Shown: in pieces, positions 33,579-34,035 of the stretch
Layout of the letters: each line of letters starts with the position of its first letter
How positions within the stretch are numbered: position 1 is the first letter of the stretch
Assembly (NCBI RefSeq): GCF_050920415.1
Contig: NZ_CP169309.1
DNA from: Escherichia coli
Lineage (GTDB): Bacteria > Pseudomonadota > Gammaproteobacteria > Enterobacterales > Enterobacteriaceae
DNA: 64,000 bases
Direction: 5' to 3' (one strand)
Notes under the pieces: generated by a model
Database searches by the model: none
Told to the model about the DNA's origin: nothing
Seen by the model: the letters and a program-made list of their open reading frames with translations, nothing else
Made by a program: the position numbers and the translations under genes

Positions 33579-33727
33579 CCGCGATCTCCATAGTGACTGA
33601 CTATCACTGCCGGGAACTTCCGCTGCTACTTAATAATTACAACAGATCTCGCATTCATTGCAACAATATATTCACTTATATTTAACTATAAAACACCATT
33701 TCAGTGACATTAGTTTCTACTGGAAAG

Positions 33728-33746
33728 ATGACAGAGTGATGACAGT
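33728..33746 (-). promoter_or_regulatory. Pho box (PhoB site) upstream of phoH
   Basis: minus strand reads CTGTCATcactCTGTCATc, two 7-bp direct repeats 4 bp apart, ~150 bp upstream of the phoH ORF start. Confidence 0.6.
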
Positions 33747-33782
33747 GATGAAAAAAGCTGTGTGCTTTCAGCAGGATTCGCG

Positions 33783-34035
33783 TCAGGCATCAACGCACGA
33801 ATGCCGGATGCGGCGTGACCGCCTTATTCAGCCTACCGAACCCGCACCGATTGTAGGCATGATAAGACGCGCAAGCGTCGCATCAGGCATCAACGCACGA
33901 ACGCCGGATGCGGCGTGAACGCCTTATCCTGCCTACCGAACCCGCACCGATTGTAGGCATGATAAGACGCGCAAACGTCGCATCAGGCATCAGCGCACGA
34001 ACGCACGAACGCCTGGTGCGGCGTAAATGCCTTAT
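33783..34035. repeat. REP/BIME cluster between phoH and efeB, including a tandemly duplicated ~100-bp unit
   Basis: repeated gccggatgcggcgtga(a/c)cgccttat...gcctac and gtaggcatgataagacgcgcaa..cgtcgcatcaggcat blocks. Confidence 0.75.

Follow-up and report, generated by a model that had tools for sequence, protein, structure and literature searches.

Described leader systems and the phoH locus

In rpmI-rplT of Escherichia coli and in the coat and replicase genes of MS2, translation of an upstream cistron is coupled to that of the next one across RNA structure. Enterobacterial regulatory leader peptides and upstream open reading frames (uORFs) such as tnaC, mgtL and secM work through particular codons or arrest sequences. 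We describe here the start region of phoH on the minus strand of a 64-kb window of E. coli DNA (the window being the whole stretch analysed), where the gene order is efeB, repetitive extragenic palindromic (REP) repeats, phoH and pgaD, and where a 354-codon open reading frame (ORF) carries a second, internal start after 92 codons. We consider it probable that these 92 codons, annotated as an N-terminal extension in some genomes, form a translated and structured leader ORF that is coupled to the real phoH start. Like the upstream cistrons of rpmI-rplT and MS2, the phoH leader ORF runs into or ends by the downstream start, across RNA structure that a ribosome could open, but where those upstream cistrons encode functional proteins the phoH leader ORF apparently has no sequence-dependent product, and the only candidate at phoH for a helix sequestering the Shine-Dalgarno (SD) sequence is 4 bp long. 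The phoH leader shares with tnaC, mgtL and secM its location upstream of the gene and its overlap with RNA structure, but unlike these it is long (84-98 codons), and no conserved sensing peptide is possible, since different lineages read the same nucleotides in two frames.

The promoter region of phoH (psiH) has been described before, as the P1/P2 region of Kim et al. 1993 (J Bacteriol 175:1316), Park et al. 2013 and Fitzgerald et al. 2023 is the same locus, with all of its elements (Pho box and PhoB binding, the constitutive second promoter P2, ArcA operator) mapping between 33745 and ~33630 in the window. The earlier promoter studies (Park et al. 2013, Fitzgerald et al. 2023) took the 354-codon ORF as the gene, and the extension was not analysed as a leader. 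A Ribo-RET study lists phoH among the genes whose in-frame internal start is conserved and is accompanied by a local rise in synonymous-site conservation (Meydan et al. 2019, 10.1101/520783), features which it shares with the internal starts of infB and arcB and which were both reproduced here; the upstream parts of infB and arcB encode conserved protein segments, whereas the phoH extension is unconstrained and is out of frame in 28 of 80 species. The related proteins YbeZ/PhoL and PhoH2 (PIN-PhoH) have the C-terminal PhoH NTPase domain in common with PhoH (PF02562, residues 149-353 in E. coli PhoH), but their N-terminal regions are real domains, and relatives of 300-350 aa align only from query residue ~147 onwards, with no counterpart of the extension. 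The Pho box, P1 and P2, the control by ArcA, the internal start and the choice of start by the Prokaryotic Genome Annotation Pipeline (PGAP) are already known, as is the ambiguity of the phoH start itself (262 aa in PGAP, internal start in Ribo-RET). We found no paper that reports the missing selection on the peptide of the extension, the hairpins that covary, the upstream start site seen in every locus or the frame-independent upkeep of the ORF, and these appear to be undescribed.

Conservation of the protein, the reading frame and the RNA

The long ORF (32514-33578, minus strand) starts with the ATG at 33578 and encodes 354 aa, while the internal Met (MGRQKAV) pointed out in a first-pass annotation of this DNA does yield a PhoH of the expected size, 262 aa from the ATG at 33302. 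Annotations conflict at this point, as the phoH coding sequence of the K-12 reference MG1655 is annotated at 354 aa, and in RefSeq/PGAP genomes, one of them from a strain that does not differ from the window across 1.7 kb, a 789-nt coding sequence starts at the internal ATG (262 aa). The 1.7 kb surrounding the phoH start region was matched in 5,425 of 5,426 complete E. coli genomes. For comparison beyond the species we used a scan of one genome per species, which gave 80 Enterobacteriaceae loci with the 262-aa core, sharing 92-100% amino acid identity with the window over that core. Counts of leader ORFs (n = 80) include the window and omit one locus (L048) with a contig too short upstream, the ratio of nonsynonymous to synonymous substitution rates (dN/dS) and codon-position diversity were calculated from 52 in-frame sequences (51 loci and the window), and RNA structure was assessed in an alignment of 39 sequences covering 33647-33267, all pairwise <90% identical over the leader.

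The core and the extension differed strongly at the protein level. Median dN/dS was 0.03 for the PhoH core versus 0.83 for the 92-codon extension, and diversity at codon positions 1, 2 and 3 was 0.05, 0.02 and 0.37 in the core versus 0.32, 0.32 and 0.33 in the extension; the leaders of the group with a shifted frame were similarly flat (0.26, 0.25 and 0.25). A search in 10-codon windows across the extension did not find any third-position excess, and even in its best conserved patch (GLQGSQPSDVRAHNR) variable sites were as frequent at first as at third positions. The extension does not behave as coding sequence under purifying selection, and the comparison of the first ~90 codons proposed in the first-pass annotation, made here across the 52 sequences, revealed no amino acid-level constraint. 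Within the core, synonymous-site diversity was lowest next to the internal start, with 0.06 for codons 1-10 and 0.20 for codons 11-20 (33243-33302) compared to ~0.4 elsewhere. This stretch of low synonymous diversity also contains the TGA codon that ends the shifted leader ORFs.

Family and homology searches placed the N-terminus of the conserved protein at the same position. Residues 1-92 had no match in Pfam or NCBIfam; the PhoH equivalog NF007827 (510.7 bits, cut-off 380) covered residues 101-353 only, PF02562 (257.5 bits) residues 149-353, and the only solved relative, PDB 3B85, residues 152-353. Among 1.84 billion representative proteins the extension aligned only in one 355-aa cluster (P0001) and two fragments, and the next cluster (P0002, 264 aa, 64% identity) aligned with its residues 1-263 to query residues 93-354. 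On the P0002 contig, the upstream gene is followed by a 132-nt spacer and then an AAGGTA-N4-ATG start (MGQQR...). The notion that many PhoH proteins are about 260 aa long holds for the nearest relatives (249-278 aa), whose alignments begin at query residues 93-120 and at residues 1-17 of their own, but the wider family is mostly 300-350 aa long with a different N-terminal domain. AlphaFold2 models of 33 full-length fused proteins had a mean pLDDT of 36, and as the known PhoH domain was modelled poorly too these are uninformative about disorder of residues 1-92. Since the extension lacks constraint, families and outside homologues, and relatives start at the internal Met, this Met is the conserved N-terminus of PhoH and the first 92 codons are not a conserved part of the protein but leader sequence. 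The first-pass annotation had proposed such a leader, and the dN/dS of 0.83, the missing family match, the covarying hairpins described below, the PGAP start and the outside relative starting at the equivalent Met all agree with it.

The upstream start, by contrast with the peptide that follows it, was found to be universal: GGAGA-N6-ATG is present in 80/80 loci, its SD-ATG spacing is canonical, and the alignment columns covering the SD and ATG (G59-A63 and A70-G73) are invariant. In 52 of the 80 loci, including E. coli, the leader ORF is fused in frame with phoH (352-356 aa in total, with 90-94 codons of extension). Another 24 loci, comprising Citrobacter, Salmonella, E. albertii and other Escherichia, and one Enterobacter, have a +1-shifted leader ORF of 97-98 codons which ends on a TGA 19 nt into phoH, and in the remaining four (Pseudescherichia, Kluyvera) the ORF is also in the +1 frame but has 84 codons and ends on a TAA 26 nt upstream of phoH. 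None of the 80 leader ORFs ended earlier than this. In the window itself, the TGA at 33281-33283 closes a 52-aa ORF in the +1 frame (33281-33439). A smaller +1-frame ORF starting from the ATG at 33397 (MAYKEA...) was rejected as an independent gene, as its ATG varies (3/39 sequences have AAG or CTG), it has no SD sequence and the variation does not fit its frame.

Avoidance of stop codons followed whichever frame the leader used. In the 40 codons that precede phoH, fused loci had stops in frame 0 in 0/52 and in frame +1 in 37/52, while shifted loci had frame 0 stops in 8/28, at six distinct positions, and frame +1 stops in 4/28, which are the leader-ORF ends themselves (Fisher tests of this reciprocal pattern, p = 1e-4 and 1e-6, not corrected for phylogeny). 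When alignment columns were shuffled, likewise without phylogenetic correction, 25.8 of 52 ORFs stayed open on average (maximum 35) versus the 52 observed, and the third frame contained ~7 stops per sequence. Judged from its sequence, the leader thus appears to combine the conserved ribosome-binding site and start with the peptide-independent open frame expected of a translated leader ORF with coupling. The first-pass annotation had gone too far in suggesting that the extension may not be coding, as the SD-ATG is present and the frame is free of stops up to the phoH start region in 80/80 loci, and the extension is most likely translated even though its peptide sequence is unconstrained.

Changes between these frames arose through 1-nt indels at at least four different sites, including a T5-to-T4 change in the tract 33426-33422, an A run, and others elsewhere. 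The T5 homopolymer (33422-33426), located inside the hairpin HpA, sets the frame relation between leader and phoH, and in E. coli it has five Ts and is in frame. The 41-mer with T5 was present in 5364 of 5426 E. coli genomes and the T4 version in seven, so that the in-frame state in E. coli is nearly fixed. The seven complete genomes with T4 carry the K-12 haplotype, and both real variants and homopolymer sequencing errors are possible sources. The divergent T4 haplotype of a record named "E69" was found in none of the RefSeq complete E. coli genomes, and this 'E. coli' record is probably a separate species in GTDB. As the T5 tract keeps the leader ORF in frame, E. coli phoH can yield both an extended 354-aa and a 262-aa PhoH, and use of the upstream ATG would mean that cells make the 354-aa form in addition to the 262-aa one.

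The leader also contains conserved RNA structure. Local hairpins were predicted using RNAalifold, and base pairs were counted on five local stems scored as six helices. In these helices 95% of alignment cells were paired, versus 32-50% when the partners were slid by 1-3 columns, and 19 of 35 pairs had changes on both sides. The number of double-change cells was 117, compared to 39 ± 7 in shuffles (0/500 reached 117) and 17-42 with slid partners, and the base pairs of the leader are hence backed by compensatory changes beyond these controls. Covariation was mostly carried by the stems 33452-33415 (HpA) and 33353-33336 (HpB). An Rfam scan of 33267-33700 gave chance-level matches only and no described family. 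Long-range pairings suggested by RNAalifold, between GAUCGC at the upstream start and GUGAUC in phoH codons 6-8 and between CACC and GGUG, are not claimed here, since both sides are almost invariant and there is no compensatory evidence for them.

Helix 5 differs from the covarying stems in being nearly invariant. The GGCUU-ACAAGG-AAGCC hairpin (33395-33380) carries a GGA motif on the 3' side of its loop, extending into the stem, and its UACAAGGA resembles the core of the CsrA consensus, RUACARGGAUGU, which makes the hairpin a candidate CsrA site and a lead only. The pga operon next to phoH is among the classic targets of CsrA. A literature search for a link of CsrA to phoH regulation did not find one, and searches for further papers on the phoH start were likewise without result.

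A probable translated leader ORF and the alternatives

What we observe is the anatomy of the sequence, the missing constraint on the peptide, the RNA covariation, the conservation of the start site and the frame-specific avoidance of stops; from these we infer leader translation, the coupling mechanism and the involvement of any regulator. We propose that phoH is transcribed from two tandem promoters upstream of 33578, the PhoB-dependent P1 and the ArcA-repressed P2, and that both mRNAs would have a leader of ~330 nt or more before the PhoH start codon at 33302. Ribosomes would load at the conserved SD-ATG ~50 nt from the P2 start, translate ~92 codons of presumably unimportant sequence, and then reach, or stop beside, the conserved phoH start with its own invariant SD-ATG. 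The functional feature may be ribosome transit rather than the peptide. Such transit could unmask or feed the phoH start and so couple its translation to that of the leader, it could shield the structured leader from termination or degradation (Rho, RNases), or both, and the hairpins may modulate transit, perhaps together with CsrA or another factor bound to them. A further-reaching version can be put forward tentatively: the leader might be an undescribed enterobacterial riboregulator, in which an 84-98-codon, peptide-independent ORF, with ribosome transit across covarying hairpins as its sole selected property and with one further, invariant hairpin resembling a CsrA site, gates the PhoH start, and in which T4/T5 slippage switches between a separate uORF and a fused isoform without loss of function.

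The choice of start matters for the study of PhoH, a widespread ATPase of still unclear function. The comparative evidence favours the 262-aa form as the conserved protein, and studies of PhoH structure, proteomics and expression should begin from its start or at least keep the two forms apart. The locus would be a clean natural case of an ORF selected for translation and not for content, overlaid on conserved RNA structure, in which the leader ORF has repeatedly moved into and out of frame with phoH, and post-transcriptional control of a classic gene of the Pho regulon becomes testable.

Several points weigh against a coupled leader ORF. The shuffle and Fisher tests ignore phylogeny, and many of the stops in the unused frame represent one inherited TAA. 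Frame openness is also not always informative, because several Enterobacter species (L014, L016, L017, L022, L024, L027, L046 and L057) keep both frames 0 and +1 free of stops for >100 codons in the ~330 nt upstream of the core start; this double openness may be the reason that Enterobacter cloacae M-7 (L054) tolerated a 1-nt deletion. The minimum-free-energy fold of the E. coli P2 leader alone was no more stable than that of shuffled sequence (z = -0.32), and it is for this reason that covariation was used as the evidence for structure. The candidate pairing of the core SD sequence (GGUG) with an upstream CACC is the 4-bp helix mentioned above and shows one-sided changes only. The near-fixed in-frame T5 state in E. 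coli could equally reflect a functional long isoform. Finally, Kim et al. 1993 reportedly sequenced the N-terminus of an overproduced 39-kDa PhoH and found it as predicted, which would fit translation from the upstream ATG but also a genuine long protein.

These last two points lead to the alternative of a two-isoform gene, in which the 354-aa protein is functional, residues 1-92 are a fast-evolving disordered tail, the hairpins and frame shifts are secondary, and the tail was lost in Citrobacter, Salmonella and E. albertii. Besides the near-fixation in E. coli and the 354-aa annotation of MG1655, it can call on the in-frame state in 52 of 80 species with the length kept at 90-94 codons, and the Ribo-RET study takes the internal site to be an alternative start inside phoH (10.1101/520783). 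However, purifying selection on the peptide was found nowhere in the 92 codons, no homologue of the extension was found outside the group, the double changes in the stems keep the RNA pairing yet alter the amino acids, and after a frameshift the new frame stays open up to the phoH start, unlike the decay expected of a lost tail. We therefore consider a functional long isoform unlikely.

Alternatively, the region may be an untranslated 5' untranslated region (5' UTR), with GGAG-N7-ATG kept as an RNA- or protein-binding element, the open frame a by-product of nucleotide conservation, and the 354-aa annotation wrong. The block 33612-33573 indeed varies less than the needs of an SD and ATG would explain, conserved RNA structure is abundant across the region, the long ORF is passed over by PGAP, and some Enterobacter species have two open frames. 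Nucleotide conservation does not readily explain why the avoidance of stops is frame-specific and reciprocal, why none of the 28 frame-shifted leader ORFs stops more than 26 nt short of the phoH start while the third frame has ~7 stops per sequence, or why the SD spacing is canonical, and we give an untranslated leader only a small chance.

A third promoter inside the extension, for example at the invariant CATAAT (33361-33356), producing a short mRNA for the 262-aa PhoH only, could coexist with a coupled leader ORF and would fit the near-invariance of GTGCGCATAATCG across genera and the only ~2.8-fold lower phoH RNA without PhoB (PMC10294691), for which P2 already accounts, but it is improbable, as a consensus scan of 33303-33578 calls no σ70 site, CATAAT lacks an acceptable -35 hexamer or extended -10 (TG), its CAU pairs with an AUG downstream of HpB in the consensus fold and so lengthens that stem, and both promoters located in the literature lie upstream of 33578.

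Promoter region and neighbouring features

The features of the phoH start region are collected in Table 1.

Table 1. Coordinates in the 64-kb window of features in and around the phoH leader, listed in the direction of transcription.
Feature	Position	Strand	Basis or remarks
Pho box of promoter P1 (PhoB-binding site), CTGTCATCACTCTGTCAT, two CTGTCAT repeats 11 bp apart	33728..33745	-	Exact pattern match
ArcA-P operator (direct repeats), overlaps P2	33657..33710	-	54-bp site from Park et al. 2013 Table S4, one single-nucleotide difference
Probable P2 σ70 promoter: -35 TTGCAA (33663-33658), 18-nt spacer, -10 TAATTA (33639-33634)	33634..33663	-	Hexamers read from sequence
Strongly conserved 5' UTR of the P2 transcript; putative short hairpin AGUGA (33608-33604)/UCACU (33596-33592)	33579..33630	-	Alignment
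Upstream translation start: SD GGAG (33589-33586), 7-nt spacer, ATG (33578-33576)	33576..33589	-	GGAGA-N6-ATG in 80/80 loci
Leader ORF: 'N-terminal extension' of 92 codons, here in frame with phoH	33303..33578	-	ORF listing
Small hairpin GUCC...GGAC just past the upstream ATG (helix 1)	33557..33570	-	99% paired; almost invariant, minimal covariation
Hairpin CGGAG...CUCCG inside the leader ORF (helix 2)	33507..33528	-	97% paired; 3/6 pairs changed on both sides, e.g. GC:30 AU:5
Two-part hairpin HpA (helices 3 and 4), holds the T5 tract	33415..33452	-	11/12 pairs changed on both sides, e.g. CG:17 UA:13; AU:9 CG:9 GU:7 UG:7
Invariant hairpin UGGCUU-ACAAGG-AAGCCA (helix 5)	33379..33396	-	4/6 pairs never vary, 0 changed on both sides
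Hairpin HpB CGCGCUG-CCAA-CGGCGCG (helix 6)	33336..33353	-	95% paired; 4/7 pairs changed on both sides, CG:21 UA:10 UG:8; CG:26 UA:11
Conserved PhoH start: SD AAGGTG (33314-33309), 6-nt spacer, ATG (33302-33300)	33300..33314	-	Unchanged in all loci
+1-frame TGA, 19 nt into phoH	33281..33283	-	Ends shifted leader ORFs; out of frame and unused in this strain
PhoH core coding sequence, 262 aa and stop	32514..33302	-	Identity, dN/dS, family profiles

The Pho box (CTGTCAT-CACT-CTGTCAT) has the 7-bp direct repeats, 4-bp gap and 11-bp period typical of such sites, and CTGTCATCACTCTGTCAT was the sole exact CTGTCAT-N4-CTGTCAT match in the window, with two matches at ≤2 mismatches versus 0.31 expected by chance. 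The first-pass annotation was right in calling it well formed but had extended it by one base, to 33746, and its estimate of about 150 nt between the Pho box and the start of the 354-aa ORF agrees with the 150 nt measured from the end of the box to the ATG at 33578. Related direct repeats (CTGTTATATTTCTGTAATAT) align at this position in other genera. A PhoB peak detected by chromatin immunoprecipitation sequencing (ChIP-seq) upstream of phoH in MG1655 (1084845) covers the identical 18-mer (PMC10294691), and phoH RNA dropped from 37,076 to 13,375 without PhoB, which is ~2.8-fold (Fitzgerald et al. 2023, PMC10294691). A Pho box takes the place of the -35 element, some 10 bp before a -10 hexamer. 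Candidate -10 hexamers for P1 are TAGAAA and ACTAAT, located 8-13 nt downstream of the Pho box, neither of which was called by the consensus scan.

Two phoH promoters were described by Park et al. 2013 (PMC3798270), citing Kim et al. 1993, and phosphorylated ArcA (ArcA-P) was footprinted on a "phoH (P2)" fragment from -80 to -21 relative to the P2 start, with phoH expression increasing 25.3-fold in an arcA deletion mutant (Park et al. 2013, PMC3798270). The P2 hexamers listed in Table 1 agree in position with these footprint coordinates, and the P2 block GTTGCA...TGATGTACTTA is conserved across genera, but the consensus promoter scan did not call them, and because of this the assignment is a putative one; the corresponding P2 transcription start would be near 33630. 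P2 and the ArcA footprint occupy ~33710-33630, downstream of the Pho box but before the ATG at 33578, and thus lie upstream of the extension and not inside it, which speaks against the earlier suggestion that the extension is second-promoter sequence. The 150 nt between the Pho box and the ATG are explained, since P2, its ArcA operator and the ~50-nt conserved 5' UTR fill them, and the placement of the Pho box and the anatomy of the promoter region are ordinary and already explained.

The 5' UTR of the P2 transcript (AGCGGTAGTTCCCGGCAGTGA...TCACTATGGAGATCGCG) was nearly invariant across the 39 diverged sequences, and its short AGUGA/UCACU hairpin was read off the alignment as a putative pairing. 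The segment 33573-33612, which runs from CCCGGCAGTGA to ATGGT and takes in the upstream SD and ATG, hardly varies between genera, beyond the needs of an SD and start codon, and may be a binding site for a small RNA or protein.

The spacer between efeB and phoH (33786-34041) is filled by tandem repeats of the REP/bacterial interspersed mosaic element (BIME) type, with the copy at 33856-33933 (minus strand) matching the Rfam family naRNA4 (RF02564) at 72 bits versus a gathering threshold of 59.5, and weaker copies on both sides. A second Pho-box-like site (TGTCATATTTCTGTCAC) is located at 54234-54251 (minus strand), ~40 nt upstream of the start of agp, and corresponds to a PhoB ChIP-seq site upstream of agp (Fitzgerald et al. 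2023, PMC10294691), with TGTCAT in this strain versus AGTCAT in the listed K-12 motif. Finally, the sequence AGCCCGG-GUAAA-CCGGGCU followed by UUGUUUU (32471-32496), just past the phoH stop codon and ahead of the convergent pgaD gene, is a putative intrinsic terminator.

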